Source: an uncultured Enterobacteriaceae bacterium
GTDB lineage: Bacteria > Pseudomonadota > Gammaproteobacteria > Burkholderiales > SG8-39
Assembly (NCBI GenBank): GCA_964477695.1
Contig: CAYZFN010000224.1
Location: forward strand, 1-58,855
DNA: 58,855 nucleotides
Reading direction: 5' to 3'
Shown here: piece by piece, positions 7,942 to 32,016 of the stretch
Layout: each line of letters begins with the position of its first letter
Position numbering within the stretch: position 1 is the first letter of the stretch
Notes under the pieces: model-generated
The model's input: the letters and a program-made list of their open reading frames with translations, nothing else
Told to the model about the DNA's origin: nothing
The model's database searches: none
Made by a program: the position numbers and the translations under genes

Positions 7942-8057
7942 GGGCTCAACGATAGGGTGAGCATCATCGCTTTAGTTCGATCGTCTGCAAGGCTTTGTCA
8001 TCGACTGTCAACGCACGGGCGGCAAAGCGTGCATTTTGCCTCGTCGCGGACAGCGTC

Positions 8058-10610: not shown

Positions 10611-11651
10611 TCATTTCGCCTCCGGCATGCAAAGCTCGACCAGCCGGCGGGCAATCGCCTGCGGCGGCATCACGTCGTGCACCGCATTGAGCGCGATCGC
10701 ACGCTTCGGCATCCCGAACACGACGCAGCTCGCCTCGTCCTGCGCGATGTTGTGCGCGCCCTTGCCGCGCAGCTCGACCATGGCTTCGGCGCCGTCGCCG
10801 CCCATGCCCGACATCAGCACCGCGATGCAGTGCCGTCCGGCCGCCTCGGAAGCCGAGCGGAACAGCGTATCGATCGAGGGCCGGTGGCGGTTCACCGGCG
10901 GATCCTGCGACAGGCGCGTCTCCAGCCGTCCGGAACGCGAGGCGACCGTCATGTGGAGCCCGCCGGGCGCGATGTAGGCCTGGCTCGGCTGCAGCGCGTC
11001 GCCATGCACGCCTTCCTTGACGCCGATGGCGCACAGGCTGTTCAGCCGCTGCGCGAAGCTGCGGGTGAAGCCCGCGGGCATGTGCTGCACGATCAGGATC
11101 GGCGGCATGCCGCGTGGCAGCGGCACGAGCAGCTCGCGCAACGCTTCCACGCCGCCGGTCGATGCGCCGACGACGATGAACTTGCTGGCGATCGCGCGTC
11201 CGGCGGCGAGCCGCGGCACGGCGGCGCCCGACGGGCGCGCGGGCTTCGGCGCAAGGCGCGCCCCGGCCGCCGCGCGCAGCTTCTCGGCCACCTCTTCGGC
11301 GTACGCGTTGATTTCCTGCTCGCTGGTCAGCACCGGCTTGGTCACGAAGTCGACCGCGCCGAGCTCGAGCGCGCGCAGCGTAACGTCCGCGCCATGGGCC
11401 GTGAGCGAGGACACCATGACCACCGGGACCGGCCGCGACGCCATGAGGCGCGGCAGGAACTCCAGGCCGTTCATGCGCGGCATCTCGACGTCGAGCGTGA
11501 TCACGTCGGGGCTCACACGGCGCAGGTGCTCCATCGCCACGACCGGGTCGCTCGCCACCGCGGCGACCGTCATGTCGGGCTGCGCGTTGATGATGCGGCT
11601 CATGATGCCGCGCATCACCGCCGAGTCGTCGATCACGAGCACGCGGATCAT
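10611..11651 (-). CDS. cheB: Chemotaxis methylesterase/response regulator CheB
   Basis: REC, then GASTGG, IVQHMPAGFT, HRPSID, SGMGGDGA. Start ATG 11651 (MIRVLVIDDS). Confidence 0.95.
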   Translation of the reverse strand: MIRVLVIDDSAVMRGIMSRIINAQPDMTVAAVASDPVVAMEHLRRVSPDVITLDVEMPRMNGLEFLPRLMASRPVPVVMVSSLTAHGADVTLRALELGAVDFVTKPVLTSEQEINAYAEEVAEKLRAAAGARLAPKPARPSGAAVPRLAAGRAIASKFIVVGASTGGVEALRELLVPLPRGMPPILIVQHMPAGFTRSFAQRLNSLCAIGVKEGVHGDALQPSQAYIAPGGLHMTVASRSGRLETRLSQDPPVNRHRPSIDTLFRSASEAAGRHCIAVLMSGMGGDGAEAMVELRGKGAHNIAQDEASCVVFGMPKRAIALNAVHDVMPPQAIARRLVELCMPEAK

Positions 11652-12223
11652 TTGCGCTTCCTGAAGATCTCGATCTCGCCCGCCCCGCCGCGCTGCAGCT
11701 TGGCGAGGTAGTCGCGCTCCTCGCGGCGCAGGCCGTCGTCGCGCAGCGCCTGCAGGCGCTTGACCAGCGCACGCCCGCTCTGCGGGAAGAACGCCACCTT
11801 GCGCGGGTAGAGATCTTCCAGGTCCTGCGCCGCCACCGGAATGCGCTCCTCGGCGAGAAATTCGAGCACGAACGCGGCGTTGCGGCTGCCGATGTTCAGG
11901 GTCTCCATGCCCTCGAGCACGTTGGCGCCGCCGAACACCTTGGCCACCAGGCTGCCGCGCTCCGCGCCGCACTTGAGCATGCGGTTGATCAGGACCTCCA
12001 TGGCATAGATGCCAAGCCGCGCCGAATCGCCCGCGCCGGGCAGCATGAAGTGATTCATGCCGCCGATGCGCCGGCGGGTGTCCCACAGGCAGGCGGAGAC
12101 GCACGAGCCGAGCACCGTCACCATCGCGAGGTCGCTCGGCGTCGCGAAGAATTCCCCCGGCGGCACCTTGACGACGTCGCGCTGGAGGGTCTTGTCGAAG
12201 TAGCGGCTGACGGGCTCTTCCAT
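11648..12223 (-). CDS. cheD: Chemoreceptor glutamine deamidase CheD
   Basis: TVLGSCVSACLWD, GGMNHFMLP, AKVFGGA, YPRKVAF. Confidence 0.95.
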   Translation of the reverse strand: MEEPVSRYFDKTLQRDVVKVPPGEFFATPSDLAMVTVLGSCVSACLWDTRRRIGGMNHFMLPGAGDSARLGIYAMEVLINRMLKCGAERGSLVAKVFGGANVLEGMETLNIGSRNAAFVLEFLAEERIPVAAQDLEDLYPRKVAFFPQSGRALVKRLQALRDDGLRREERDYLAKLQRGGAGEIEIFRKRK

Positions 12224-12227
12224 CGCG

Positions 12228-13055
12228 CTAGCGCCTCGTGTAGGCCGTCTTGCCGTGCGGACGAAAAGCGGGATGACCGGCCGCGCAGCTCTCGGAGTGG
12301 CCGAGAAAGAGCAGCGCCCCGGGCACCAGCACGTCGGCCAGCCGCTCGAGCAGCCGCTGCTGCGACGCGCGGTCGAAGTAGATCAGCACGTTGCGGCAGA
12401 AGACGGCGTCGAAGCGCTCGCCGCCCGCCCAGTGCGGCGCGAGCAGGTTGCGGAACTCGAAGCTCACCATGGCGCGCACCTCGGGGCGCAGCAGTGCGAG
12501 GCCGTCGTTGCGCCCGGTGCCCTTCAGGAAATGCGGCTGCATGCGCTTGAAGCCGGCGCGCTCGAGCAGATCCGTCTTGTACACGCCCCGCTGCGCGGTG
12601 GCGAGCGCTTCGGTGTCCACGTCGCTCGCGAGGATGCGCGCCGTGCAACCCGCCTCGCGCAGCGTGATCGCGGCCGAGTACGGTTCCTCGCCGGTCGAGC
12701 AGGCGCTGCTCCAGACGCGCAGCGGCGCGCGCCCCCGTGCGTGCTCGAGCAGCATCTCGAAATGATGCGGCTCGCGGAAAAACGCCGTCAGGTTGGTGGT
12801 GAGGGCGTTGATGAAGCGCTCGCGCTCCTCGGAATCGGGCTGCTCCACCCAGTCGAGGTAGTCGCGAAAGCTGCGCCGCCCGGTAGCGCGCAGCCGCCGG
12901 GAGAGCCGGTTGTAGACCATGTTCTCCTTGCGCTCGTGCAGCGAGATCCCGGCGTAGGCCAGGATCAGCTCGCGCACCCGCCGGAAGTCCTGGTGCGTGA
13001 AGGAGAAATCGTGTTCCAAGGCTTGCATGGCGGGGGCGCTCGGCGTCCGGGGCAC
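12228..13055 (-). CDS. cheR: Chemotaxis methyltransferase CheR
   Basis: LTTNLTAFFREPHHF, WSSACSTGEEPYS, FCRNVLIYFD, LFLGHSES. Start may be the Met of MQALEHDF. Confidence 0.95.
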   Translation of the reverse strand: MPRTPSAPAMQALEHDFSFTHQDFRRVRELILAYAGISLHERKENMVYNRLSRRLRATGRRSFRDYLDWVEQPDSEERERFINALTTNLTAFFREPHHFEMLLEHARGRAPLRVWSSACSTGEEPYSAAITLREAGCTARILASDVDTEALATAQRGVYKTDLLERAGFKRMQPHFLKGTGRNDGLALLRPEVRAMVSFEFRNLLAPHWAGGERFDAVFCRNVLIYFDRASQQRLLERLADVLVPGALLFLGHSESCAAGHPAFRPHGKTAYTRR

Positions 13056-13067
13056 GGACGCCGTCGC

Positions 13068-14816
13068 CTAGAACTCCTGCCAGCCTTCTTCGGCGTGGCC
13101 GTTGCCCTTGCGTTTGCCTGCCTTGGGCGAGTGGCTGTACGTCTCCACCTTCTTCGGGCTCGCAGCGAGAGTCTTCTCCGGCGCGGGCTTCCTGGGCGCC
13201 GCCGGCGCTTCCGCCGGATGAGCTTCGATCTTCCTCGGCTGCGCCAGGGGCTTCGGCGCGGGTGCGCTGTGCGCGGGCTCCTGGCCGAGCCGGAACGCCG
13301 CCACCGCGCTCGAGAGCGTGCGCGACTGCTCTTCCAGGCTGCCGGCGGCCGCGCTCGCCTCCTCCACCATCGCCGCGTTCTGCTGCGTCACCTTCTCGAG
13401 CTGCGTCATGGTCTCGCTCACCTGCTCGATCCCCTGCGCCTGCTCCGTGCTCGCCGCCGTGATCTCGGCAATGAGGCTGGTCACCTTCTTCACCGACTCC
13501 ACCACCTCCTGCATCGTGCGCCCGGCGTCGTTCACCTGGCGCGAGCCGGCGTCCACCTTCGATACCGAGTCGGTGATCAATTCCTTGATCTCCTTGGCCG
13601 CCCCGGCCGAGCGCTGCGCTAGGCTGCGCACCTCGGAGGCCACCACGGCGAAGCCGCGCCCCTGCTCGCCCGCGCGCGCCGCCTCCACCGCGGCGTTGAG
13701 CGCCAGGATGTTGGTCTGGAAGGCGATGCCGTCGATCACGCCGATGATGTCCGAGATCTTCTTCGACGCTTCGGTGATCGCGTTCATCGTGCCCACCGCC
13801 TCGCGCACCACCTCGCCGCCCTTCGCGGCGACGCTCGAGGCCTGCGCGGCGAGCTCGTTCGCCTTTTTCGCGTTCTGCGCGTTCTGTCCGACCGTGGCGG
13901 TCATCTGCTGCATCGACGCCGAGGTCTCCTCGAGCGCGCTCGCCTGCTGCTCGGTGCGCGTCGAGAGGTCCGAGTTGCCCTGCGCGATCTCGCGCGAAGC
14001 GTTGGCGACCATGTCGGTGCCGTTGCGCACGCCGGACACGATGCGCTTCAGGCTGTCGTTCATGTCCTTCAGCGCGCGCGACAGCTCCGCCGTCTCGTCG
14101 GCACCCTGGACGCGCACCTCGGAGGTCAGGTCGCCGCCCGCGATGCGCCGCGCCACGACGATCGCGCGCTGCAGGGGCTGCACGATGCGCCGGCTCATGA
14201 AGAGCGAGATGCTGATCGAGATCAGCAGCGCGGCCGCGACCAGGATGACCAGTGCGACCGTCACCTTGGCGAACGCGGCCCGCGCATCGTCGTAATCCTC
14301 CTGCGCGCCGCGCGTCTCGAGCGCGACCAGCTCGTCGAACTGCTTGGCCATGTCCTGGAAGTCGGCATCCGCGGTCTGCATGGCGGCCGCGCCGGTGTTG
14401 ACGTCGCCGGCGCTGAGATCGATCGCCAGGTCGACGTCCTTGCGGTATTTCGCGAGCTTCGCTCCGACGGCGGCCGCGGCCCGGCGCTCCTCCGGCGAGC
14501 GCTCCGACCGCGCCGCGAAGGCGGCGACGTCCCGGGACACGGCGTCGACCTTCGAGAGCAGCCCGCTGGCGGTCTGCTTGATGCGGTCATCGCTTAGGCT
14601 GCCGATCACGCTGAACAGGCGGTACACGCCGGAGTGCACCTCGCCGATGTCGTGCACCGAGCGCGCGGCGAGCTGATAGCTCGTGAAGCGCTGCTCGAAG
14701 AGCTCCGACAGCGTGTGCTGCTGACCGATCAGCACGCTGTAGACCGTGATCCCGAGCGCGAGCAGGAATGCGATCGCTACGCCCGGGGCGATGAGTATCT
14801 TGTGCCAGACCTTCAT
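13068..14816 (-). CDS. Methyl-accepting chemotaxis protein with C-terminal CheR/CheB-tethering pentapeptide
   Basis: Two transmembrane segments, helical periplasmic domain, HAMP, IAFQTNILALNAAVEAARAGEQGRGFAVVA, C-terminal GWQEF. Confidence 0.95.
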   Translation of the reverse strand: MKVWHKILIAPGVAIAFLLALGITVYSVLIGQQHTLSELFEQRFTSYQLAARSVHDIGEVHSGVYRLFSVIGSLSDDRIKQTASGLLSKVDAVSRDVAAFAARSERSPEERRAAAAVGAKLAKYRKDVDLAIDLSAGDVNTGAAAMQTADADFQDMAKQFDELVALETRGAQEDYDDARAAFAKVTVALVILVAAALLISISISLFMSRRIVQPLQRAIVVARRIAGGDLTSEVRVQGADETAELSRALKDMNDSLKRIVSGVRNGTDMVANASREIAQGNSDLSTRTEQQASALEETSASMQQMTATVGQNAQNAKKANELAAQASSVAAKGGEVVREAVGTMNAITEASKKISDIIGVIDGIAFQTNILALNAAVEAARAGEQGRGFAVVASEVRSLAQRSAGAAKEIKELITDSVSKVDAGSRQVNDAGRTMQEVVESVKKVTSLIAEITAASTEQAQGIEQVSETMTQLEKVTQQNAAMVEEASAAAGSLEEQSRTLSSAVAAFRLGQEPAHSAPAPKPLAQPRKIEAHPAEAPAAPRKPAPEKTLAASPKKVETYSHSPKAGKRKGNGHAEEGWQEF

Positions 14817-14852: not shown

Positions 14853-15335
14853 TTAATCCTTGTACACGCCGCCGCAGACGACCGTCTCTTCCAGGCGCTC
14901 GCAGTACATCTGCTTGGCCTCGATCTTCTTGGTGAGCGGATCGGTGAACTTGTAGTCCTGCCAGAAGCTCGGCTTGGACTTGCCCAGCTCGACGCGCTCG
15001 CGCACGAACTCCTTGCCGTCGATGTCCTTCAGGTCGATCACCACCTTGCCGACCATGCGCTCGTTCTGGCCGTGCGCCCAGACCTTGCCGTCGAGGCCGT
15101 ACACCACGAGGTAGAGGTCGCGGTCGTGGAACTTGCCGCCCTTGGCGGTGAAATCGGCGTACGCCTTCTCTTTGCCGCTGGCCTTGATGTACTGCACGCC
15201 CTTCTTGACCATCGCGACCGCTTCCTCCTTGGTCGCCCTGCGCTCCACCGGCGCGGCGAGCGCGCTGGCGCAGGTGAGCGCCGCGGCCGTGCCGAGCGCG
15301 ATGAGGGTGAGCTGCTTGCGGGTTGCGTTTTTCAT
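14853..15335 (-). CDS. Secreted stand-alone single Cache (sCache_2-like) domain protein
   Basis: Signal peptide MKNATRKQLTLIALGTAAALTCASALA; LYLVVYGLDG, AHG, DLKDIDGKEFVRE, WQDYKF. Confidence 0.82.
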   Translation of the reverse strand: MKNATRKQLTLIALGTAAALTCASALAAPVERRATKEEAVAMVKKGVQYIKASGKEKAYADFTAKGGKFHDRDLYLVVYGLDGKVWAHGQNERMVGKVVIDLKDIDGKEFVRERVELGKSKPSFWQDYKFTDPLTKKIEAKQMYCERLEETVVCGGVYKD

Positions 15336-15367
15336 GGCACTTCCTCCCTTCGGTTGATGGGGGTTAT

Positions 15368-15775
15368 TCATTTCGGCAGACGGTCGTAGCGCGCGTCGGC
15401 AACGCGTACCAGCGCCGCGAGCTGCTGCACGCGGGCGCGGTCCTTTTGGCCCTCGGCCAGCGCTCCCGCGCTGCGCGTGAGCTCGTCGATGCGCCGGCGC
15501 GCTTCGTCGCGGCGCACCCGGTAGTAGGTACTCTTCTGCGCGCCCGGCGCGGCGAGCATGTTCTTCTCCAGCTCGCGCAGGAACTGCACGCGGCCCTGGA
15601 CGCCGGCCGCGGCGCGGACGAACTCGTTGCGCCGCGCTTCGGCGGCCTCGCGCGGCAGCGTCGCGGCCTGCGCGACCAGCATCGCGCTCGTGCCCATGAC
15701 CAGCAGCAGGAGGGCCCAGGCGAGGCTCGGCGCGCTGGCGGCGAAGTCGTGCGCCGCGGGGCCGGCGTGCCTCAT
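15368..15775 (-). CDS. Hypothetical membrane-anchored helical protein
   Basis: ATGA overlap with cheW stop; N-terminal hydrophobic stretch followed by amphipathic helices. Confidence 0.6.
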
Positions 15776-16293
15776 GAGCGGGCCTCCGCGCGGGCGTGGT
15801 CGACGAGCTGCATGTCCTCGCTCGTCATCAGCCGCTCGATGTCGACCAGGATCAGCATGCGCTCGGCAACGGTGCCGAGGCCGGTGATGAAGCGCATGTC
15901 GAGTGCGCCGCCGAACTCGGGCGCCGGGCGGATCTGCTCGGCGCCGAGCGTGATCACGTCCGACACCGCGTCGACCACGATGCCGAGCACGCGCCGCGCG
16001 ACGCTGAGAATGATGACCACCGTGAACGCGTCGTACTTGGGCTCGGCGAGACCGAACTTCACGCGCAGATCGACGATCGGCACGATCGTGCCGCGCAGGT
16101 TGATCACGCCCTTGATGAAGGCCGGCGTGTTGGCGATCCCGGTCGGCGTCTCCCAGCCGCGGATCTCCTGCGCATTGAGGATGTCGATGCCGTACTCCTC
16201 GGCGCCGAGCCGGAAGGTGAGGAACTCGCGGCCCACGGCGTCGCCGCCGCTCGCCGCGGACTGCGGCGCCGGCCTGATCAGTGCAGCTTCCAC
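15772..16293 (-). CDS. cheW: Chemotaxis coupling protein CheW
   Basis: [42 protein letters not shown]. Confidence 0.95.
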
Positions 16294-18290
16294 TGTGCTC
16301 TCCCTGAGGGTTGACCGATGATGTGGGCGAGGTCGAGGATCAGCGCGACCTTGCCGTCGCCCATGATCGTCGCCCCGCTGATGCCGGGCACCTTGCGGAA
16401 ATTGGCCTCCAGGCTCTTCACGACCACCTGCTGCTGGCCGATCAGCTCGTCGACCAGCAGCGCGGCGCGCGCGCCGTCGGCTTCGACGATCACGGCGATC
16501 TCGTCGCTGCGCCCGAGGCGGCGCACCGGGACATATTCGTCGCGCACGCGCAGCGTGTGGCCCTGGCCGGCCACGCTGCGGATCTCGTCGGCCTGCACGC
16601 TGCGCGACTCGACGACCGAGGCGAGCGGCAGCACGTAGGTCTCGCCCGCGGCGCCGACGGTCATCGCTTCGATGATGGCCAGCGTCAGCGGCACGCTCAC
16701 GGTGACCGCCATGCCCTTGCCGGCGGTCGAGGCGAGCTCGACGTTGCCGCTGAGCAGCTGGATGTTGCGCCGGACGACGTCCATGCCGACGCCGCGCCCG
16801 GAGACGTCGGTGACGGTTTCCGCGGTGGAGAAGCCGGGCTCGAAGATGATGCGCCAGACGTCCTGGTCGGCTGCGTCGGCGGCGATGGTCATGGCGCGCT
16901 CGGCGGCGCGCCTGAGGATGCGTTCGCGGTCGAGGCCGCGGCCGTCGTCGCGCACTTCGATGATGATGCGGCCGCCGCGCTGCATCGCCGACAGCCAGAT
17001 CGTGCCGCAGCGCGGCTTGCCCGCGGCCTCGCGCACCTGCGGCGTCTCGATGCCGTGGTCGATGGCGTTGCGTACCAGGTGCGTGAGCGGATCGGTGATG
17101 CGCTCGATCAGGCCGCGGTCGAGCTCGGTCGCCTCGCCCGCGACCTTGATCTCGACCTCCTTGCCCAGCCGCTGCGAGAGCTCGCGCACCAGGCGCGGGA
17201 AGCGGGAGAACACCGCCGAGATCGGGACCATGCGGATCGCCATCACGGCTTCCTGGAGATTGCGCGTATGCCGTGCGAGCTCGCCCAGGCCGCTTAATCC
17301 CGCGCCATCGCCATCGGCGCGGGCGGCCTGCTGCGACAGCATGGCCTCGGTGATCACCAGCTCGCCGACCAGGTTGACCAGGCGATCGATCTTTTCGACG
17401 CTGACGCGGATCGAGCCGGCCTCGCTTTGCTGGGCGGCCGTGCGGTCCGACTCGCGCCGTCCGTGCGTGGTCGTGGCGAGCGCATCGCTCGAGCGCCGGC
17501 CGCGCCCTTTGCGGCGCTCGCGCCAGGCCTCGGGAGAGGTGAAGATATCCACGCCGGCGCCATCCGCCGCGGCCGGCGCGGCTTGCGGCGCTGCCTCTTG
17601 CGCTACGGGAGCGGCCGCGACTTCAGGTTCCTCGGCAGCGCCCGCAGGAGCTATGTGGATCTGCTCGGCCGGCACCACCAGCGAAAGCACGCTGCGCAGG
17701 TCGGCCTCGCAGGCAGCGAGCGACACGCCGAAGCGGATCTCGCCGCCCGCGACGTTGTTGATCTGCGGCGCATCGACCCTGCCCATGCCGGCGAGGCCGC
17801 CGAGCATGGTCTCGAGCGCGGCGGCGTCGATCGGCTCGCCGAGCGGCCCGAGCTTCACCGCGAAGCCGTGCTCGGCGTCGGGGGCCGAGGCGCTGATCAG
17901 CGCGCGCAGCTCGGCCTCGGCGATGCTCATGTCGGGCGGCGAGGCGAGCGCGCCGCGGCGGAAGGCCACCTGCATCTTGACCACGTCGCCCGAGCGCAGC
18001 ATCGCCTCGACGTCGGCGTGGCTCACGGCGCGCTGCTGCTTGCGCAGCAGGTCGAGCAGGTTCTCGAACGCGTGGGTGAGCGACACGATCTCGGTGAAGC
18101 CGAGCATCCCGGCGCTGCCCTTGATCGAGTGCACGGCGCGGAAGATGGCATTCAGCGCCTCGGCATCGGGCGCCTCGGGGTCGAGGCGCAGCAGCATCGT
18201 CTCCACGCAGGCCAGGTGCTCGTCGGCCTCCTCGAAGAAGATGGCGTGGAACGCGCTCGGCTCGAGCCCTTTTGCGCCGGGACCGGTCAT
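16278..18290 (-). CDS. cheA: Chemotaxis histidine kinase CheA
   Basis: P1 [56 protein letters not shown]5 CheW-like domain; no C-terminal REC. Confidence 0.95.
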
Positions 18291-18652
18291 GACACGAACT
18301 GGCGGACGATCTCGACCATCTTCTGCGGATCGAACGGCTTGGCCATCCAGCCGGTGGCGCCGGCCTCGCGGCCTTTCGCCTTCAGCTCGGCGCCCGTCTC
18401 GGTCGAGAGCACGAGCAGCGCCACGTCGTCGTATTGCGGCAGCTGGCGCAGCGCGCGCACCAGCGTCACGCCGTCCATCTTCGGCATGTTGTGGTCGGTG
18501 ACCACCATGTCGAACACGCGCGCCTTCGCCTTCTCCAGCGCTTCGGCGCCGTCGGCCGCCTCTTCCACCTGGTAGCCGGCCGCCTGCAGGACGCTCGCCA
18601 CCATCTTGCGCATCGAGCGGGTGTCGTCCACTACAAGAATCGCGTTGCTCAT
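18287..18652 (-). CDS. cheY: Chemotaxis response regulator CheY
   Basis: VVDDTRSMR, TDHNMPKMDG, LSTE, GATGWMAKPF. Confidence 0.93.
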   Translation of the reverse strand: MSNAILVVDDTRSMRKMVASVLQAAGYQVEEAADGAEALEKAKARVFDMVVTDHNMPKMDGVTLVRALRQLPQYDDVALLVLSTETGAELKAKGREAGATGWMAKPFDPQKMVEIVRQFVS

Positions 18653-18674: not shown

Positions 18675-19502
18675 TCAGGCCGCGGCCCGCGCGGTGGGAA
18701 GGAACTTGGCGATCACCTCGAGCAAGCGGTTCTCGTCGACCGGCTTGGTGAGGTACTCGTCGCATCCGGCGAGCGAGCCGCGCAGCTTGTCGAACGGCGA
18801 GCTGCGGCTCGTCAGCATGACCACCGCGGTGCGCTTCACCGCCTGCTTGTTGGACTTGATCAGCTTGCACACCTGGTAGCCGTCGATGCCGGGCAGCACC
18901 ACGTCGAGGAACACGCAGGTGTATTCCTTGTTGCCGGTGAGCCCGACCGCCTCCTCGCCGGTTTCCGCGAAGTCGGCGCTGAAGCCGTACGGCGCGAGCT
19001 TCGCCTCCATGAACTTGCGCACGGTCAGGTTGTCGTCGACCACCAGCACGGCGTCGGTGAACTCCTTCACCTTGCCTGCCGGGCGGGGCGCGGCGGCCGG
19101 CCTGGCGGACGGTGCGTTGGTGCTGGTACGGCGCAGGACCCTCTCGGTCTCGATCGCCGGGGCGCCGGCCTGTCCGCCGAGCACGGCGTCGTCGAAGCTT
19201 TGCAGGAGCTTCGCCCACTGCAGCGGCCGCGGCAGCACCGGCAGGCCCAGCTTGGAATCGCCTTCGCCGATCAGGATGGCCGGCGCCGCATAGCGGGCGC
19301 GCACCGCGCGGAACTCGGTCATGGCGGCAGCATCGCTGCCGTCCACGAGGTACAGGTCGGCGGGCCGGGAAGCGCCCGCCTCGCGCTGCACGAAGCTCGG
19401 ATCACGCCGGGCCGCCAGGCCGAAGATGCTGGAGAGCAGCAGCCGTTCGGTCTGGTTGAACCCGATTACGTCGACGCAGTAGCTGTTGTCGTTGTCGGCC
19501 AT
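18675..19502 (-). CDS. Response regulator with degenerate N-terminal receiver-like domain and PilG-like C-terminal REC
   Basis: C-terminal VVDDNLTVR, FLDVVLPGIDGYQVCKLIK, MLTSRSSPFDKLRGSLAGCDEYLTKP. Confidence 0.82.
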   Translation of the reverse strand: MADNDNSYCVDVIGFNQTERLLLSSIFGLAARRDPSFVQREAGASRPADLYLVDGSDAAAMTEFRAVRARYAAPAILIGEGDSKLGLPVLPRPLQWAKLLQSFDDAVLGGQAGAPAIETERVLRRTSTNAPSARPAAAPRPAGKVKEFTDAVLVVDDNLTVRKFMEAKLAPYGFSADFAETGEEAVGLTGNKEYTCVFLDVVLPGIDGYQVCKLIKSNKQAVKRTAVVMLTSRSSPFDKLRGSLAGCDEYLTKPVDENRLLEVIAKFLPTARAAA

Positions 19503-19580: not shown

Positions 19581-21665
19581 TCAGGTCGTGCAAACGTCTT
19601 TGCGCAGCGCGATCTGCGTCCACACTTCGTCGATCGCCCCGAGCAGCGCGTCGGCGCTGCGGAAGCGCGCTTCCGGCCGCTTCGCGAGCATGCCGTCGAC
19701 GAGCGCCTGGTATTCGGCGAGCTCCGCCGGCAGGCCCGGCACGGGCGCCGCGACGTGCTGCGAGAGGATCTCGAGGATCGTCGTGCCGTTGAACGGCCGC
19801 TGGCCGGTGAGCATCTCGTAGAAGATGATGCCGAGGCTGTAGAAGTCGCTCGCCGGCGTGACCTCGCCGCCGTCCGCCTGCTCGGGCGAGATGTAGTACG
19901 GCGTGCCGAGGATCTCGCCGTGCAGCGTCTGGTTGGCCGAGTTGTCGAGCCGCTTGGCGACGCCGAAATCCGTGAGAACCAGCACGCCCGCATCGCGCAG
20001 CATGAGGTTGGCCGGCTTCACGTCGCGGTGCACGATGCCGCGTCCGTGAATTTCTCCCAGGCCGCTCGCCGCCTGCGAAAGCAGCGACAGCGCCTGGCGC
20101 GGCGTAAGGCCGCGATCGATCTGCTCGCGCAGGCTGCCGCCGCGCAGGTACTCCATCGCCAGGTAGGCGAGCTCCTCGCCGAAGCCCTGGTCGTAGATGC
20201 GCACGACGTGCTCGTGCTCGATCGAGGACAGGATCGCGCATTCCTGGAAAAAGCGCTTCCACAGGCCGTCGTCGTCGCTGCGCCGGCCCTTCAGGACCTT
20301 CAGCACCACCTTGCGGTGGCCGCCGTCCTGCTCCTCGGCGAGGAACACGCTCGACATGCCGCCCTGACCGATCTTCGCCAGCACGCGATAGCCGTGGATC
20401 AGCGGCTCGCTGTCGCTCGCCAGGTCGGCGGCGCGCTTCGGCGCGCCGATCGCGTTCAGCGTGCTGTCGAGCGCGTGCTTCGCCGCCTCGGCGGTCGTCA
20501 GCGCGCTCTCCTGCAGCACCGCCTGGATGCCGAAGCTGAGCGGCGGCTCGGCCGCGCTCGCGGGCGCGCTCGCCGGTATGACGAGGCGGCCGACGCTGAT
20601 GCGCGCGCCGCGCCCGGCGAGCTCGAGCTCCCTCGTCTCGGCGACGCTGAAGCCCGCGCCCGCATAGTCGAGCGTGGCCTGGCTCGCCACGATCGGCCAG
20701 CCGAGCTCCTTGGATTTCGCTTCCAGCCGCGCCGCAACGTTCACCGTATCGCCGATCGCCGTCAGGTCGCCCGAGCCGCCGACCGAGAGCTGGAACAGCA
20801 TCACCTCGCCGGTGTGGATGCCGACGCCGATATCGAACGGCGGCAGGATCACCGAATCGAAGCGCGAGGCGACCCAGCTGCGAAACTGCTGCGCCACCTG
20901 CACGATTTCCAGGGCAGCGCGCAGCCCGGCCGCGGCATGCTGCGGCACTTGGTCGGGCGCCTCGTGGCCGAACAGCGCCATGAGCCCGTCGCCCATGATC
21001 TTCATGATGCGGCCGCGCTGCGCGAGGATCGGCTTGCAAGCCTCGCGCAGATAGGTGGTCAGGAGCTCGGCGATGTCCGTGACCGGCAGGCGCTCCGACA
21101 TGGTGGTGAAGCCGCGGATATCGGTGAACAGCACGGTCTGCGTGACGCGCCGGCCGGTCAGCCCGGCCAGATCCGCGTCGGTGGCGAGCTGCGGCTCGCC
21201 GCCTTCGATCTTCGATTCGTAGCGCGCGCGCAGCTCCCTCTCCACGGGCAGAGCGCGGCCGGAGACGAGCGCGCTCAGGCGGCGGCGCTTGTCGAGCGCG
21301 ACGTTGACCGCGTCGACGAGCTCGACCGGCTGCACCGGCTTGCACAGGAAGTCGTCTGCGCCCAGGCGCATGCCGCGGCGCACGCTGTCACGGTCGTTGA
21401 GCGACGTGAGCAGGACGAACGGCAGCGTGGCGGTCTTGGCATCGGCGCGCACCCGCTCGAGCACCTGGAAGCCGTCGAGGCCCGGCATCTGCACGTCGCA
21501 AACGACGAGGTCGGGCAGCGCGAGGCGGATCCTCTCCAGCCCGGCATTGCCGTCGGCGGCCACCTCGACCTCGAAGCCGGCCGCGCCCAAGAGGTGCGAC
21601 ACCAGGACGCGCATGGTCGGGTCATCGTCGATCGCGACGATGCGCTTTACGGTCGGAAGGGTCAT
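19581..21665 (-). CDS. REC - class III adenylate cyclase - Ser/Thr kinase fusion protein
   Basis: REC (DDD, CDVQMP, LTS, KP); cyclase FTDIRGFT, KIMGDG, GIHTGEV, TAIGDTVNVAARLE; kinase GQGGMS, VLKVL, HRDVKPAN, DFG, GTPYYISPE. Start ATG 21665. Confidence 0.9.
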   Translation of the reverse strand: MTLPTVKRIVAIDDDPTMRVLVSHLLGAAGFEVEVAADGNAGLERIRLALPDLVVCDVQMPGLDGFQVLERVRADAKTATLPFVLLTSLNDRDSVRRGMRLGADDFLCKPVQPVELVDAVNVALDKRRRLSALVSGRALPVERELRARYESKIEGGEPQLATDADLAGLTGRRVTQTVLFTDIRGFTTMSERLPVTDIAELLTTYLREACKPILAQRGRIMKIMGDGLMALFGHEAPDQVPQHAAAGLRAALEIVQVAQQFRSWVASRFDSVILPPFDIGVGIHTGEVMLFQLSVGGSGDLTAIGDTVNVAARLEAKSKELGWPIVASQATLDYAGAGFSVAETRELELAGRGARISVGRLVIPASAPASAAEPPLSFGIQAVLQESALTTAEAAKHALDSTLNAIGAPKRAADLASDSEPLIHGYRVLAKIGQGGMSSVFLAEEQDGGHRKVVLKVLKGRRSDDDGLWKRFFQECAILSSIEHEHVVRIYDQGFGEELAYLAMEYLRGGSLREQIDRGLTPRQALSLLSQAASGLGEIHGRGIVHRDVKPANLMLRDAGVLVLTDFGVAKRLDNSANQTLHGEILGTPYYISPEQADGGEVTPASDFYSLGIIFYEMLTGQRPFNGTTILEILSQHVAAPVPGLPAELAEYQALVDGMLAKRPEARFRSADALLGAIDEVWTQIALRKDVCTT

Positions 21666-23158
21666 AGGCCTAGCCTCGCGCAATCGTCGAGCAGCGCCTG
21701 TGCGCTCGAATAGCGTTCTTCGCGGTCCTTCGCCATGAGCTGGTCGAGGATCGGCTGCAGCGATTCGTGCGGCTGCGGCAGCTGCGGCACCGGCGCATTG
21801 GCGTGCAGGTCGAGCAGCTCCTCGGCGGTCGACGCGCGGTAGGGCTTTTGCCCGGTCAGCATCTCGAACAGGATCACGCCCAGGCTGTACAGGTCGCAGC
21901 GCTGGTCCACCGGCTGCGCCGTCGCCTGCTCCGGGCTCAGGTAGTAGGGCGTGCCGACCACCTCGCCGTGCGCGGTGTCGGTGATCAGCATGCCGACGTG
22001 CTTCGCGACGCCGAAGTCGGCGAGCGCGAGGCTGCCGTCCCTGCGCAGCATGAGGTTGTCCGGCTTGAGATCGCGATGCACGATGCCCGCCTCGTGGATG
22101 GCGCCCAGCGCCGCCGCGGTCTGCTTGACGTAGGAGATCGCCGCGCCGGGGGCGACGCCGGCGGCAATGCGCGCGCGCAGGTCGCCGCGCGAGAAGTACT
22201 CCATCGCGATATAGGCGTGCCCCGACGAGAAACCCTGGCGGTGGATGTGCGCGACGTTCGGATGCTGCACCTGGGCGAGCAGCGCGAACTCCTGGATGAA
22301 GCGCTGCAGGTGATCGTTGTCGCCCTCGCCGACGATGCGCATGACCTTCAGCACCTGCGGCTCGCCCGTGCCGTCGGCGGCGAGATAGATCGACGCCATG
22401 CCGCCCTCGCCGATCTTCTTCAGGATACGGTACCCCTCGATGGAAAAATGCAGGCCGGCGGCCTGCGCCGCGGCGGTCGCGGCACGCGCGAAGTCCTGCG
22501 GCCGGTCGTATTGCTTCTGGTTGGCGGCGATCGCGTCGCGCAGCGCCTGGTAGATCGCGGGCGCGCTGCGCGAGTTCTTCTGCGGCGCGAGGCCGGTCAC
22601 CTCGGCGATGTTGACGAACGACTCGTCGGGCATCGCCACCGAGCCGAAACGCCCGGACTCGATGCGCGCCCCGGCGGCGCGGCAGGCTTCGTCGGACGCG
22701 ACGATGCTCCAGCCGACGTCCGGGGCCGTGCATTCCAGCGCGCGGGCGATCTCGACGGCCTCGCCGGTCGCGCGCACCGCACCGCTCGTGCCGCGTGCGG
22801 CCGGTGCGACTTCGACGCGGCCGAGGTGCACGCCCGCCGCGACGGTGACCGGCGGCGCGTCGTGGCGCAGGCGCTCGGCGTTGCGCCGGTTGAGCGCGTC
22901 GGTCTCGTAGACCGCCAGGGTCGCCGCATGCAGCGCGCGGCGCGCGTGGTCCGGCTTCTCGTTCGGATCGTTGGCGAAGATGGCGAGGATGGAATCGGGA
23001 CGGCGCTGCACGATGATGCCCTTCTGGCGGCTGATGGGCGACTCGAGCACGCCGCGCAACTCGTCGACGAAGCCGGCGCTCAGATGCGGCGGCATCGCGT
23101 TGCAGGTCGGCAGCACGTTGCGCAGGCGCGCGTAGAGAATGGTCGCTACCGTTTCCAT
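21662..23158 (-). CDS. Degenerate (pseudo) class III cyclase domain - Ser/Thr kinase fusion protein
   Basis: N-terminus aligns with the neighbouring cyclase but catalytic residues are lost; kinase GEGGMAS, VLKVM, HRDLKPDN, DFG, GTPYYLSPE. Start at METVATIL. Confidence 0.85.
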   Translation of the reverse strand: METVATILYARLRNVLPTCNAMPPHLSAGFVDELRGVLESPISRQKGIIVQRRPDSILAIFANDPNEKPDHARRALHAATLAVYETDALNRRNAERLRHDAPPVTVAAGVHLGRVEVAPAARGTSGAVRATGEAVEIARALECTAPDVGWSIVASDEACRAAGARIESGRFGSVAMPDESFVNIAEVTGLAPQKNSRSAPAIYQALRDAIAANQKQYDRPQDFARAATAAAQAAGLHFSIEGYRILKKIGEGGMASIYLAADGTGEPQVLKVMRIVGEGDNDHLQRFIQEFALLAQVQHPNVAHIHRQGFSSGHAYIAMEYFSRGDLRARIAAGVAPGAAISYVKQTAAALGAIHEAGIVHRDLKPDNLMLRRDGSLALADFGVAKHVGMLITDTAHGEVVGTPYYLSPEQATAQPVDQRCDLYSLGVILFEMLTGQKPYRASTAEELLDLHANAPVPQLPQPHESLQPILDQLMAKDREERYSSAQALLDDCARLGL

Positions 23159-23333: not shown

Positions 23334-24266
23334 ATGGGCAGGCAAGCGAACCAGCCACTGCGCGACGGCACCCTCCTCGACGAATACCGCATCGAGCGCC
23401 TGCTCGCTTCGGGCGGCTTTTCGTTCGTCTATCTCGCGCGCGACGCGCTGGGCTCGCCCTGCGCGATCAAGGAATATCTTCCCGCCACGCTGCCGATGCG
23501 CACCGGAGCCGATGCCGCGCTCAGCGTGCCGGAGATGCACCGCGCGGTGTTTCGCCACGGCCTGCAGTGCTTTTTCGCCGAGGCGAAGGCGCTCGCGGGC
23601 TTGCGCCATCCGAACGTAGTGCGCGTGCTGAAGTTCTTTCGCGGCAACGGCACGGCGTACATGGCGATGCGCTATGAGCGCGGGCGCACGCTCCAGCACT
23701 GCATCGAGCACGGCGGCGCCCGGCCGCGCGAGAGCTGGATCCGCGCCAAGTTCGCGCAGCTCTTGAACGGGCTGCGCGAAGTGCACTCGAGCCGCCTGGT
23801 TCACCTCGACATCAAGCCGGCGAACATCTATCTGCGCGAGGGCGACGATCCGATGCTGATCGACTTCGGCGCCGCGCGCGCCGCGCTGGGACGCGACGCC
23901 GCCGACCTGCCGCCGACCTATACGCCGGGCTTCGCCGCGCCCGAGCACCACGGCGGGCGCGGCCAGCTCGGGCCGTGGAGCGACATCTACTCAATCGGCG
24001 CCTGCATGTATGCCTGCCTGTCCGGCGAGGTGCCGCCGGCGGCGATCGAGCGCCGTGCGCAGGAACGCCTGCGCGCGCTGCACGAGCGCGCGGCCAGCCA
24101 ATATTCGAAGGAGCTCGTGCGCATCGTCGAAGCGTGCATGCGCCTCGATCCCGAGCAGCGGCCGGGCAGCGTGCTTTCGCTCCAGAAGGCGCTCCTCGGC
24201 GAGGCGTCGCTGCCGCAGATCGATGTGCCTGTGCAGCCGGCGCGCGGGCAGGCTCTGGCGATCTGA
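23334..24266 (+). CDS. Hanks-type Ser/Thr protein kinase
   Basis: LASGGFSFVYLA, AIKEYLP, HLDIKPANI, IDFG, TPGFAAPEH. Confidence 0.92.
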   Translation: MGRQANQPLRDGTLLDEYRIERLLASGGFSFVYLARDALGSPCAIKEYLPATLPMRTGADAALSVPEMHRAVFRHGLQCFFAEAKALAGLRHPNVVRVLKFFRGNGTAYMAMRYERGRTLQHCIEHGGARPRESWIRAKFAQLLNGLREVHSSRLVHLDIKPANIYLREGDDPMLIDFGAARAALGRDAADLPPTYTPGFAAPEHHGGRGQLGPWSDIYSIGACMYACLSGEVPPAAIERRAQERLRALHERAASQYSKELVRIVEACMRLDPEQRPGSVLSLQKALLGEASLPQIDVPVQPARGQALAI

Positions 24267-24269
24267 GCC

Positions 24270-25016
24270 ATGAACATCTCCGTGGTGCAGGAGACGCGCA
24301 AAGGCGGGCGGCCCTACAACCAGGACCACCTCGCGCACTGGATTACGCCCAAGGCCCTGCTGCTCGCCGTCGCCGACGGCATGGGCGGCTACGCCGGCGG
24401 CGAGCTCGCCGCGCGGGCCGCGGTGGAGTGCCTGGGCGAGGCGTTCCGTTCCCAGGCAAAGCCGGCGCTTTCCGATCCGCAAGCGTTTCTGTCCGGAGCG
24501 ATCGGCAAGGCGCATGCCGCCGTGGTGCGGCAGGCGGCCAAGGCGGGACTCGGCGAGGAGCCGCGCACCACGCTCGTCGCCTGCGTCGTGCAGGCCGGCC
24601 AGGCCTACTGGACGTTCATCGGCGACTCGCGCTTCTACCTGATCCGCGAGGGCAAGATCGTCGTACGCACCAAGGACCACACCTACGTGCAGCAGCTGAT
24701 CGACGCCGGCCGCATGCGCGAGGAAGCGGCCGCCGCGCATCCTGAGCGAAGCAAGCTGCTGCGCTGCCTCGGCGGAACCGTGGCGCCGGCCGGCGAGCCG
24801 ATTGCCAGCGCGCGGCTCGCGAAGGACGACATCATCCTGCTCTGCTCGGACGGCCTATGGGGTCCGCTCACCCCGCGGCTGCTCGTCATGGGCCTGACCG
24901 GCAAGGATCCGCGCCGCGCAGTTCCGGAGCTCATGAACCTCGCCGAGGCGCACGGCGGCCCGGGTTGCGACAACCTCTCGGCGCTGGCGCTTCAGTGGCA
25001 TACGGAGGCCGCCTAG
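24270..25016 (+). CDS. PP2C/PPM-family Ser/Thr phosphatase
   Basis: NQDH, VADGMGG, IGDSRFY, LCSDGLWG, DNLS. Confidence 0.92.
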   Translation: MNISVVQETRKGGRPYNQDHLAHWITPKALLLAVADGMGGYAGGELAARAAVECLGEAFRSQAKPALSDPQAFLSGAIGKAHAAVVRQAAKAGLGEEPRTTLVACVVQAGQAYWTFIGDSRFYLIREGKIVVRTKDHTYVQQLIDAGRMREEAAAAHPERSKLLRCLGGTVAPAGEPIASARLAKDDIILLCSDGLWGPLTPRLLVMGLTGKDPRRAVPELMNLAEAHGGPGCDNLSALALQWHTEAA

Positions 25017-25582
25017 ACCTCGCTCCCGGGCAGGCGGCGATCGCCGCGGCCGGAACGGCGTTCAAGGTCGACGGCTGCGCCCTGCTGCCTGCGATCGGAC
25101 GCAAGGACGTTGCGGCGCTCGGTGGAGGCGGCCGGACGCCATCCGACGTACGCGGCAATCGCGGCCGTGCCGCCATGCAGCCAGACGTCGTGTCCTTCGA
25201 GCGGCAGCAGGCCGAACAGCGTGTTCAGGTGCGGAATGAGGCCCAGCAGCGCCAGCGCGGCAAACAACACCGCGATCGAGCGTGCGTAGAGCGTCGGGTT
25301 CATGAGCGAGCGGCCGGCGAGAATGCCCCACACGCCGATGGCGAGATGCACGGCGCTATGCAGCACGTTCACGGGAAAGAGCCCGAGCAGGTAGCCGTTG
25401 AAGAGCGTCACGTGCACCTGCGGCGAATCCGGCGGCGCGAGCCGCAGCGCCTCGGGCACGAGGCCGAGCAGGCCGGCGGCGAAGTACGCCATGCCGCAGA
25501 AGAACGCAAAAGTTTCGGCTCTCGTAATCCCTCCCGGCGCCAGTCTATCCGCGCCGCGCGCAGGCTTGTCAAGGATTGTCAC
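25013..25582 (-). CDS. DUF4383-like membrane protein with ERR..DRR repeat tail
   Basis: Four hydrophobic segments, LLGLFPVNVLHSAVHLAIGVWG, DVWLH. Start could be a downstream Met. Confidence 0.7.
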   Translation of the reverse strand: MTILDKPARGADRLAPGGITRAETFAFFCGMAYFAAGLLGLVPEALRLAPPDSPQVHVTLFNGYLLGLFPVNVLHSAVHLAIGVWGILAGRSLMNPTLYARSIAVLFAALALLGLIPHLNTLFGLLPLEGHDVWLHGGTAAIAAYVGWRPAASTERRNVLASDRRQQGAAVDLERRSGRGDRRLPGSEV

Positions 25583-26210: not shown

Positions 26211-28502
26211 TTAGCTTGCCCGCCGCAGGAACGTCAGCAGCTCCGCCACGGCAAGCGGCTTGGCAAACAGGTAGCCCTGCATCTGGTCGCATCCGAGTTC
26301 GAGCAAGAGCGTAGCCTGGCTCTCCGTCTCGACGCCCTCGGCAACGACCTTGAGCCGTAGCGAATGCGCGAGCGAGATTATCGTCTGAACGAGGGTCCGC
26401 GCCGTCGAATCGTCGTCCATGGCCTTGACGAACGAGCGGTCGATCTTGAGCGTCTCGACGGGGAGGCGCGCCAGGTAGGCCAGCGAGGAATAGCCGGTGC
26501 CGAAGTCGTCGACTGCAATGCCGACGCCCAGACGCCGAACTTCGATGAGCTTCTCCATGCTCGCCTGGATGTCCTCCATGACCACGCTTTCGGTGAGCTC
26601 CAGGTCGATCCCGGTCGGTGACAGGCCGTCGCGGATCGCCTGCTCCAGGGTGCGCACGAAGTTCCGCTGGCGCAATTGGATAGCCGATAGGTTGACCGCG
26701 ACCTTGGGTGGGCGCAGGCCCGCCTCGGCCCATGCGCGATGGTCGAGCGCGGCACGCCGCAGTGCCCACGAGCCGACGTCCAGGATCAAGCCGGTTTCCT
26801 CGAGCAAGCCGATGAACTTGATCGGCGGCACGAGCCCGAGTTCGGGGTTCTGCCAACGGATCAGCGCTTCCAAGCCGACGATGCGACGGCTGGCGGCGTC
26901 GATCTTCGGTTGGTAGTGCAGAACGAACTCTTCGTTCTCCAGCGCCCGGTGCAGCTGACTCTCGAGCGACAGCTTCTCGGCGATTCGCTCCGTCATTTCC
27001 CGCCGGTAGAAAAGAAAGCGCTCGCCAGAGCCCTTGGCCTTCTTGAGGGCCGCTTCCGCGTTGCGTAGCAACGTGTCAGTGTCGCTTCCGTCCGAAGGAA
27101 AAACGGCGATGCCCATTCGGGCGGAAATCCGCAGCTCCGTCGATCCGACCGGGAAAGGGGCGCCAAACGTCGCGCCGAACCGGCGGCCGGTAAGGACGGC
27201 CAGCTCCTCCTCGCTCTCGACGTCGGGGGTGACAATGGCGAATTGATCGCCGCCGAGGCGGGCGCACCAACTATCCCCCGGCCCGACCGTGCTCAGGCGC
27301 CTGACGACCTCGAGGAGCAGCGCGTCGCCCGCCTGACGCCCTATGCCATCGTTGATCGTCTTGAAACGCTCGATATCGAGAATCTTCAGCGCCACTCGAT
27401 CGCCGGTGCGAGCTGCATCGTGCAGCTGCTGCCTGAGGCGCTCGTGGAAGAGCGCGCGGTTGGGCAGCCCGGTCAGGGCGTCGTAGTACGAAACGTACTC
27501 GAGGCGCTGCGCCTTTGCGATGTGGTCGAGCGCAAAGGAGACGTCACCGGCCAGCTCCTCGAGCAGGCGCAGCTCCTCGGCATCGAAGAAGCCGGCGTCG
27601 GCCGCGTACAGGGCAAGGGTTCCCACAGCCTCGTCATCCACGACCAGCGGCAGGATCGCGAGCGAATTGATGCCGCGCTCGGCCAGCTCGCGGCGCATCA
27701 GCCGCTGCGGATCATTCTGCACGTCATTCGACAGGATGGGGCGCTTGGCGCGCACCGCTTGCCCCGCCAGACCATGGCCGCCAGGCTTGGTCTCGAGCAC
27801 CGCCATCGGTGCCGTGGCAAAGAAATCGCCGACGTTGCCGGCCCTGGCGACGGGCTCCACCAACGAGCGCGCCCGGTCGACAAGGCCGATCCACGCCATC
27901 ACGAAGCCGCCGGCTTCCACGGCAATGCGGCACGCTTCCTCGAGCAACTGCGGGCGCTCGCGGATGCGAACGATGGCCCCGTTGATGCCGCTCAGCACCG
28001 CGTAGACGCGGTTCAGGCGGTTGATGCGTTCCTGCGCCCGGACTTGCTCGGTGATGTCCTGCAGCGTGTTGAACCAGCGCAGCCGGCCCCGCTCGTCGGC
28101 GTTGCCTGGAATCGGCTCCATCACTTGCCGCACGTGGACCCATGCGCCGTCACTGCGCCATAGGCGGTACTGGACCTCTTTGCGCGCCTTGTCGCCTCGC
28201 GCCAGGAGCGCCGCCGCGCGAAATCGCTCGCGGTCAGCAGGGTGAATAAGGTCGAGCCAGCGCCGGGTACTGCCGACCACCTGTTCCGGCGCGATGCCGA
28301 GCAGACGCGGCAAGGTCTCGGACCAGGTCTCGAAAGAGCCCTCCGGCCCCGTGATGACGTGCGCGAGGCCTGCCATGAGCTGCGCATGGCGAAGACCGGC
28401 AGCCTGCTCGCGTAAATCGCTTAGCGAGATCGCCGGCGTCCGTGCCTCGGCCTCGGCGACCACGTGGACTGCCTTTTCCGCTGGAGAAGGTTTCCGCGGC
28501 AT
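26211..28502 (-). CDS. PAS-GAF-GGDEF(degenerate)-EAL protein, probable c-di-GMP phosphodiesterase
   Basis: DALTGLPNR, RLGGDQF, EALIRW, DDFGTGYSSLAYL, LKIDRSFV, AEGVE, QGYLF. Start moved to MPRKPS. Confidence 0.88.
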   Translation of the reverse strand: MPRKPSPAEKAVHVVAEAEARTPAISLSDLREQAAGLRHAQLMAGLAHVITGPEGSFETWSETLPRLLGIAPEQVVGSTRRWLDLIHPADRERFRAAALLARGDKARKEVQYRLWRSDGAWVHVRQVMEPIPGNADERGRLRWFNTLQDITEQVRAQERINRLNRVYAVLSGINGAIVRIRERPQLLEEACRIAVEAGGFVMAWIGLVDRARSLVEPVARAGNVGDFFATAPMAVLETKPGGHGLAGQAVRAKRPILSNDVQNDPQRLMRRELAERGINSLAILPLVVDDEAVGTLALYAADAGFFDAEELRLLEELAGDVSFALDHIAKAQRLEYVSYYDALTGLPNRALFHERLRQQLHDAARTGDRVALKILDIERFKTINDGIGRQAGDALLLEVVRRLSTVGPGDSWCARLGGDQFAIVTPDVESEEELAVLTGRRFGATFGAPFPVGSTELRISARMGIAVFPSDGSDTDTLLRNAEAALKKAKGSGERFLFYRREMTERIAEKLSLESQLHRALENEEFVLHYQPKIDAASRRIVGLEALIRWQNPELGLVPPIKFIGLLEETGLILDVGSWALRRAALDHRAWAEAGLRPPKVAVNLSAIQLRQRNFVRTLEQAIRDGLSPTGIDLELTESVVMEDIQASMEKLIEVRRLGVGIAVDDFGTGYSSLAYLARLPVETLKIDRSFVKAMDDDSTARTLVQTIISLAHSLRLKVVAEGVETESQATLLLELGCDQMQGYLFAKPLAVAELLTFLRRAS

Positions 28503-28771
28503 GGGTGTCGTTGTCGAACTGAAACCGCGTACCGAGTCTAGCCGGAGGCGAGCTATGGGGCTATGAACGCTCTTGCAAAAGACCGTGCAGTTGCGTCGCG
28601 CTTGTCGGGAGCTTCCCGACACCGACGCCGCAGTCCGAGGACCAGCACACTTCGCTTTATCCGGACGTCTTAGATGAGCACGCCAAGGAACGTCCGTTGA
28701 CACATCTTCACTCGAGCAAAACGATGTCAGGCGCTGCTCTGGTACTGCAGGTGTGCGGTTATCGTCGGCGG

Positions 28772-30085: not shown

Positions 30086-32016
<1,931 letters not shown>

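Follow-up and report, generated by a model that had tools for sequence, protein, structure and literature searches.

The window analysed here is a 58,855-nucleotide stretch of DNA (contig CAYZFN010000224.1, assembly GCA_964477695.1) from an uncultured bacterium placed in the Burkholderiales (lineage SG8-39). On its minus strand lie two adjacent genes, A and B, each of which encodes a cyclase-fold domain followed by a Ser/Thr kinase. A first-pass annotation, made from the letters alone, had described B as an active cyclase-kinase and A as its dead paralogue, and had proposed that the dead domain silences the active one by forming a heterodimer with it. We found that the N-terminal domain of A is a degenerate class III cyclase fold held under purifying selection, that this constraint is independent of a live cyclase in B, and that the two genes are the first cistrons of a conserved Che-type operon.

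The gene pair and its domains

The coordinates of the pair agree with the first-pass annotation, and both genes are on the minus strand. The genes, their domains and the junction between them are the following.

21662..23158, minus strand: gene A, pseudo-cyclase and Hanks-type Ser/Thr kinase, 498 amino acids (translation; Pkinase is the only Pfam match; homologues)
22589..23158, minus strand: A residues 1–190, degenerate class III cyclase fold (AlphaFold2 model, Foldseek, PDB profile match, invariant residues)
21692..22432, minus strand: A residues 243–489, intact protein kinase domain (Pfam Pkinase, E 1.4e-48; motifs kept in 55 orthologues)
21662..21665, minus strand: ATGA, overlap of the A stop and the B start, translational coupling (sequence)
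19581..21665, minus strand: gene B, receiver, class III adenylate cyclase and Ser/Thr kinase, 694 amino acids (translation, Pfam, homologues)
21303..21641, minus strand: B residues 9–121, CheY-like receiver (Pfam Response_reg, E 2.8e-25; motif positions)
20604..21137, minus strand: B residues 177–354, canonical class III cyclase domain (Pfam Guanylate_cyc, E 4.6e-13; match to CyaC 1WC0)
19650..20390, minus strand: B residues 426–672, intact protein kinase domain (Pfam Pkinase, E 5.3e-48; motifs)

In the related loci L053–L057, A and B are either joined by the identical 4-nucleotide overlap or separated by no more than 11 nucleotides. In the public gene call, A starts further upstream (P0142, 520 amino acids). 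Automatic annotations name proteins of the A and B types 'class 3 adenylate cyclase', 'PpkA' or 'protein kinase'.

Both kinase domains are intact and similar to each other (49% identity), as the first-pass annotation had it. Each carries the full set of Hanks motifs, namely the glycine-rich loop, the VxxK Lys, the αC Glu, HRD, DFG and SPE; the corresponding residues are K271, E290, D363 and D381 in A, and K456, E475, D548 and D566 in B. The receiver at the N-terminus of B, which that annotation did not describe, has the acidic pocket D13/D14, the phospho-acceptor D57, T87 and K109.

The cyclase domain of B has a complete set of catalytic residues: the metal-binding D182 and D226, together with K222, T302, N309 and R313. 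The motifs reported for it earlier were all found, with FTDIRG at residue 180, KIMGDG at 222 and TAIGDTVNVAARLE at 302. The Guanylate_cyc score of 49.6 bits is well above the Pfam cut-off of 21.9, and its closest match among solved structures is CyaC (1WC0, E 7.7e-18). A search for B homologues gave at least 120 full-length proteins, and all six catalytic residues are kept in 107 of 117 family members. B should thus be a catalytically competent class III cyclase of the Lys/Thr adenine type, as predicted from these residues.

The N-terminal domain of A, on the other hand, is missed by the Pfam cyclase model that matches B. Foldseek searches with the full-length model returned kinases only, the best structural matches being PknB/Stk1 kinases, and the N-terminal domain was therefore modelled on its own. 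The AlphaFold2 model of residues 1–235, built with 104 homologues, has a mean predicted local distance difference test score (pLDDT) of 89.5 and a predicted template-modelling score (pTM) of 0.87. The top 50 PDB matches of this model in Foldseek are all class III cyclases, headed by Cya2 (2W01) and CyaC (1WC1) at a template-modelling score of ∼0.79, and a profile of the domain matches CyaC (1WC0) with an E-value of 3.9e-10.

The motifs quoted for A in the first-pass annotation were likewise located: YARLRN at residue 9, QRRPDS at 51 and RATGEAVEIARALE at 129, along with the retained fold residues GVHLG at 109 and GWSIVAS at 149. Aligned with B, the first metal-binding Asp (D182) corresponds to R11 in A, and this Arg is invariant in 100 sequences. 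The second metal-binding Asp (D226) is kept as D55, which is also invariant. The substrate-specifying Lys (K222) is replaced by Q51, the substrate-specifying Thr (T302) by R129 (His in the Ramlibacter clade), and the transition-state Asn (N309) by E136. The reported losses of the first Asp, Lys, Thr and Asn are therefore firm. The reported loss of the catalytic Arg is less certain: the column of R313 holds A140 in A, but the invariant R139 stands one residue earlier, and HMMER pairs it with the catalytic Arg via a one-residue gap. The N-terminus of A is thus a class III cyclase fold in which four or five of the six canonical catalytic residues are replaced.

A and B are true paralogues, as had been proposed. 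They align colinearly over the cyclase domain, the linker and the kinase (513 columns, 37% identity, E 4e-93), a similarity far beyond chance; by domain, the cyclase-fold parts are 30% identical. When A residues 1–235 were searched against 1.84 billion representative proteins, a compact family of its own was obtained (15 matches at E ≤ 1e-30), and the next tier (E 1e-18 to 1e-11) included receiver-cyclase-kinase proteins of ∼690 amino acids, which have the architecture of B. The nearest outside relatives of the A domain are therefore B-type proteins. In trees of the kinase domains, A and B form clean clades whose internal substructures are congruent. Judged by these comparisons, A and B are old duplicates. 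Since the A clade is nested in the wider receiver-cyclase-kinase radiation, A appears to have arisen from a B-like ancestor by loss of the receiver and of the catalytic cyclase residues. Degenerate cyclase domains also recur elsewhere in this wider family (for example P0283 and P0325).

B-type genes with canonical cyclase residues were also observed alone, at 4007..7300 of L058 and 1998..5291 of L059. There they are followed only by a gene for a 321-amino acid receiver protein, which in L058 is 45% identical to the 275-amino acid receiver protein encoded after B in the window; neither gene A nor che genes were found nearby. This two-gene arrangement may represent the module in its minimal or ancestral form. 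The reverse situation, A without B or without a kinase-only form of B, was never seen among the loci examined.

Selection on the pseudo-cyclase domain and the state of its partner

The N-terminal domain alone retrieved 21 homologues of A, which understates the family; the full-length protein gave at least 120 orthologue clusters. The closest relatives (88% identity) come from uncultured Burkholderiales genomes, while the wider family is found mostly in Ramlibacter and allied Comamonadaceae. The substituted motifs YARL(R/H)N, R(P/A)DS and GE/DAVExAR are present in 45 of 45 orthologues from species-representative genomes, and likewise in 100 homologues from protein databases. In an alignment of these 100 sequences, 24 columns of the pseudo-domain are invariant, including Y9, R11, D55, E136 and R139. 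Upon addition of four more divergent fragments, E136 and Y9 became nearly invariant.

We calculated ratios of nonsynonymous to synonymous substitution rates (dN/dS, or omega) by the Nei–Gojobori method, and read them as relative values. The median over the 60 closest pairs is 0.27 for the pseudo-domain, comparable to that of the kinase (0.30), and 0.74 for the linker. In matched genome pairs having a full-length B, the A pseudo-domain has a ratio of 0.31 and the live cyclase of B 0.39; between the window and L003 the respective values are 0.07 and 0.15. The purifying selection on which the earlier proposal depended is thus present, and is as strong on the pseudo-domain as on the kinase and on the active cyclase of B. 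The dead domain of A is constrained and not decaying.

What this constraint serves is a separate question. According to the first-pass annotation, the pseudo-cyclase of A heterodimerises with the cyclase of B, so that cyclic AMP (cAMP) synthesis is turned off and the two kinases are joined for trans-phosphorylation. In such a switch, the balance between B:B and A:B dimers would set cAMP against kinase output. In class III cyclase dimers, one subunit gives the metal-binding Asp residues and the other gives the Lys, the Thr or Asp, the Asn and the Arg. A lacks both half-sites, with R11 on the metal side and Q51, R129 and E136 on the side of substrate and transition state. The residue logic of this proposal is therefore sound: given how class III dimers are built, neither active site of an A:B heterodimer would be complete. 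The proposal also gains from the fact that the cyclase-fold domains of A and B are most closely related to one another, from the ATGA coupling, which suggests co-production of A and B, and from residues of A that are conserved within clades but differ between the clades with and without a B cyclase.

The related loci argue against silencing as the conserved role. The gene after A in loci of the Ramlibacter type (40 loci, in 37 of which the downstream kinase was readable) encodes a protein of only ∼280 amino acids. It matches the kinase of B alone, falls in the B kinase clade, and has neither a receiver nor a cyclase. The A domain in these ∼40 genomes is equally or more constrained: the ratio of pseudo-domain identity to kinase identity in A is 0.93 next to the kinase-only B, and 0.88 next to the full-length B. 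Some side features of the kinase-only B proteins (L008–L050) were also observed. They have degenerate glycine loops and long branches, and in some of them HRD has become HGD or HCD, or DFG has become DLG; these kinases may be turning into pseudokinases.

In another lineage, represented by three loci, the receiver and kinase of B have been kept, and its cyclase is dead and fast-evolving.

L006, 8598..10721: B with dead cyclase
L056, 3874..5961: B with dead cyclase
L057, 2893..4980: B with dead cyclase

The residues G-K-D-S-D-L stand here in place of D-K-D-T-N-R, so that neither A nor B has a live cyclase-fold domain in these loci. Between L006 and L056, the dN of the dead B cyclase is 0.47, compared to 0.08 for the A pseudo-domain; A remains constrained beside a B cyclase that is drifting.

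As the A domain is constrained without a live B cyclase, its constraint is independent of a cyclase to silence, and silencing cannot be what maintains it. Of the earlier interpretation, the paralogy, the loss of both half-sites and the purifying selection stand, while silencing as the conserved role does not. We consider the heterodimer switch unlikely as the explanation of the pair; silencing of this kind is possible at most as a secondary, clade-specific effect in the clade of the window. The constant element of the module is the constrained pseudo-domain of A together with two kinases; the synthesis of cAMP by B, though frequent, can be dispensed with.

The Che operon and its neighbourhood

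Downstream of B, on the same strand and separated by small gaps or overlaps, lie the following genes.

18675..19502, minus strand: 275-amino acid protein with a C-terminal receiver (Pfam; orthologues in 46 loci)
18287..18652, minus strand: CheY-like single-domain response regulator, 121 amino acids (Pfam; orthologues in 43 loci)
16278..18290, minus strand: CheA histidine kinase with Hpt, dimerisation, HATPase and CheW-like domains (Pfam)
15772..16293, minus strand: CheW (Pfam)
14853..15371, minus strand: small stand-alone sCache_2 protein (Pfam; also in L055)
13068..14816, minus strand: methyl-accepting chemoreceptor with 4HB, HAMP and MCPsignal domains (Pfam)
12228..13055, minus strand: CheR methyltransferase (Pfam)
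11648..12223, minus strand: CheD (Pfam)
10611..11660, minus strand: CheB methylesterase with a receiver (Pfam; gene order in L053); its start is approximate, as the listed open reading frame extends upstream into cheD

The order on this strand is thus A, B, receiver protein, CheY, CheA, CheW, sCache, chemoreceptor, CheR, CheD and CheB, and the cluster between 10611 and 18290 is complete in having CheA, CheW and a chemoreceptor along with CheR, CheB and CheD. The same order, from A through the receiver protein, CheY, CheA, CheW, the chemoreceptor, CheR and CheD to CheB, was found in all six B-carrying metagenome contigs examined. These contigs (L053–L057 and L060) are independent, and A is directly upstream of B in each. 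A and B are therefore translationally coupled and stand first and second in a conserved, non-flagellar Che-type operon of soil and freshwater Burkholderiales. A scan of the sequence for promoters and terminators gave no promoter-like site, and terminator-like sites at chance level.

The gene of the 275-amino acid receiver protein comes after B in every related locus, including those where B is alone. Its residues 1–150 have no Pfam match, and by eye resemble a degenerate second receiver. The sCache_2 gene is directly upstream of the gene for the 4HB-HAMP chemoreceptor; as the same split is present in L055, it is a conserved two-gene arrangement and not a frameshift.

Several other genes in the surroundings were recorded. 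Divergent to A, at 23334..25016 on the plus strand, are a third Ser/Thr kinase (310 amino acids) and a PP2C phosphatase (248 amino acids). We considered these as members of the module and rejected them, since no orthologue is present in any related locus; they could still act on the kinases of A and B in this genome. Near the module are also a DUF4383 protein (25013..25582, minus strand) and an 830-amino acid PAS-GAF-GGDEF-EAL protein (26211..28703, minus strand), and two PAS-domain histidine kinases are encoded just past cheB (6826..9411, minus strand). Between 28000 and 34000 of the window the GC content falls to 0.625–0.64, compared to ∼0.70 elsewhere; this stretch holds GroEL (30086..31723, minus strand) and open reading frames without a Pfam match.

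Possible functions of the pair

The reading that we favour, with a probability of about 50%, is that B is the CheA-driven output of the pathway, and that A is a kinase partner carrying a non-catalytic pseudo-cyclase module. B would be the enzymatic response regulator: CheA would phosphorylate D57 of its receiver, and this phosphorylation would control dimerisation of the B cyclase, by which both cAMP synthesis and the Hanks kinase at the C-terminus would be governed. As cyclase-homology domains are obligate dimers, the pseudo-cyclase of A would act as a scaffold, for dimerisation or for regulation, by which the kinase of A is positioned or gated. A, co-produced with B, would then form with the kinase of B a two-kinase output. 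We thus infer four steps, namely the phosphotransfer, the dimerisation, the partnership of the A and B kinases and the cAMP output. The remodelled pocket of A (R11, R53, D55, E136 and R139) may hold locked salt bridges or form a ligand site. The pseudo-cyclase of A is probably a structural or regulatory module and not mainly a silencer of the cyclase.

Some points weigh against this reading. The kinase trees were made by neighbour-joining and have short deep branches. The extreme bias in GC content at third codon positions compresses dS, and hence the omega values are meaningful only relative to each other. The pseudo-domain of A also differs between the lineages having a full-length B and those having a kinase-only B, though it is conserved within each (for example RLRN and RLHNF, respectively, or VRA and VHA). 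These clade-specific residues could constitute a partner-specific interface in the clade of the window.

The charged residues of the A pocket also suggest that the pseudo-cyclase could be an allosteric nucleotide sensor, binding ATP, cAMP or another nucleotide and thereby gating the kinase of A. In the clade of the window, A could in this way read the product of B itself. Parallels are the degenerate GGDEF domains that bind GTP and the pseudosymmetric site of mammalian cyclases. R11, R53, D55, E136 and R139 are invariant exactly at the former active site, and selection on the A domain is as strong as that on catalytic domains. In addition, proteins of ∼147 amino acids that bind cyclic nucleotide monophosphates are encoded a few kb upstream of the module in L053 (1788..2231) and L054 (4248..4688), suggesting cAMP signalling around it. 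However, both adenine-specifying residues, Lys and Thr, are replaced, an Arg occupies a metal position, and the same charged residues could form a structural salt-bridge network only. No homologue of the cyclic nucleotide-binding proteins of L053 and L054 is present in the window. We regard a nucleotide sensor as quite improbable.

It is very unlikely that the A domain is still catalytic, as a cyclase or in another nucleotidyl transfer, with migrated or non-canonical residues. The metal-binding D55 and the R139 beside the catalytic position are indeed invariant, and the replacements R11 and E136 are conserved and not random. Four to five of the six canonical residues are nevertheless replaced, one metal ligand by a cationic Arg, and the Pfam cyclase model misses the domain. 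That the domain is a decaying, functionless relic and a mere spacer before the kinase can hardly be right, in spite of the absent catalytic residues and the missing Pfam match: its omega of 0.07–0.31 equals that of the kinase, the linker drifts at 0.43–0.74, it has 24 invariant columns in 100 sequences and a confident, well-packed model fold, and the truly drifting dead B cyclase (L006 and L056) has a six-fold higher dN.

The favoured reading, B as the output of CheA and A as its kinase partner, can be compared with known systems. In the C1/C2 domains of mammalian membrane adenylyl cyclases and the α/β subunits of soluble guanylyl cyclase, paralogous domains, of which one or both are partly degenerate, form pseudo-heterodimers with sites at the interface, the degenerate site being regulatory. 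A and B resemble these in having two paralogous class III cyclase-fold domains with degeneracy in one. In these enzymes, however, the degeneracy is complementary: the metal-binding Asp residues are kept by one subunit and the Lys, Asp, Asn and Arg by the other, so that one site is active, whereas A lacks both halves and B keeps all six residues; we therefore ruled out a complementary pseudo-heterodimer of this type. The A and B domains, moreover, belong to two different polypeptides, and each of them is fused to a kinase. The closest solved structure to both domains is CyaC of Spirulina platensis (1WC0/1WC1), with which B shares the Lys/Thr residues of the adenine type. CyaC is active as a homodimer and has no kinase, and A differs from it at the first Asp, Lys, Thr and Asn.

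Animal receptor guanylyl cyclases combine a kinase-homology pseudokinase and an active cyclase in one chain. A likewise has a kinase fold and a cyclase fold in one chain with one of them dead, but here it is the kinase that is live and the cyclase that is not, the cyclase comes first, and the protein is cytoplasmic and encoded in a bacterial Che operon. The TOMM system kinase/cyclase fusion (NCBIfam TIGR03903) also joins a kinase with a class III cyclase; it is ∼1267 amino acids long with the kinase first. A and B are not members of this family, as their scores of 162 and 116 bits are far below its cut-off (705.75) and only the kinase part is matched, and no NCBIfam model reaches its cut-off.

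Among Che-like pathways, Wsp has a receiver-GGDEF protein, WspR, as its output, and the Chp pathway of Pseudomonas is linked to cAMP made by CyaB. Chp and cAMP are mentioned in PMC6391922. The operon in the window is like Wsp in its core of CheA, CheW, chemoreceptor, CheR and CheB and in having a receiver-fused nucleotide cyclase as the predicted output. It is unlike Wsp and Chp in that this output combines a class III adenylate cyclase and a Hanks kinase in one protein, with a pseudo-cyclase kinase paralogue beside it; a Che output of this type was not found in the literature searched. We examined the Flm chemosensory pathway of Comamonas as an equivalent and rejected it, since it is of the type IV pilus (Tfp) class, has no CheR or CheB, and contains no kinase or cyclase genes. 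The papers on Ramlibacter genomes that we consulted mention CheA systems, but not the A/B pair, and in the literature searched there is no description of a cyclase-kinase paired with a pseudo-cyclase-kinase.

In trypanosomes, the prozyme of AdoMetDC is a dead paralogue that has been kept and that activates its partner by heterodimerising with it (PMC5201418). A is similar in being a dead paralogue retained under selection beside an active counterpart, but a heterodimer with A could only inactivate, and the dead domain of A persists without an active partner domain. We also rejected a role in anti-phage defence: PADLOC gave only generic kinase matches (PD-T4-6 and mad6) and no cyclase-type system, and the neighbourhood is a Che operon.

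It remains a tentative suggestion, with odds clearly below even, that the pair represents an undescribed class of Che output, in which a pair of Hanks kinases is joined by optional cAMP synthesis and the pseudo-cyclase of A, repurposed for regulation, acts as a ligand sensor or an obligate dimerisation gate controlling the kinase. If true, this would be the functional mirror of the animal receptor guanylyl cyclases, where a pseudokinase controls the cyclase. Much work has been done on the pseudoenzyme domains of kinases and of GGDEF/EAL proteins, and far less on those of the class III cyclase type in bacteria. The present family offers natural comparisons, with a partner cyclase that is live, dead and drifting, or absent, and with B occurring without A; taken together, these comparisons show that selection keeps the dead domain for a function of its own. 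In a single operon, the module would join His-Asp chemosensory signalling, cAMP and Ser/Thr phosphorylation. It occurs widely among the Burkholderiales of soil and freshwater, the cyst-forming genus Ramlibacter among them.

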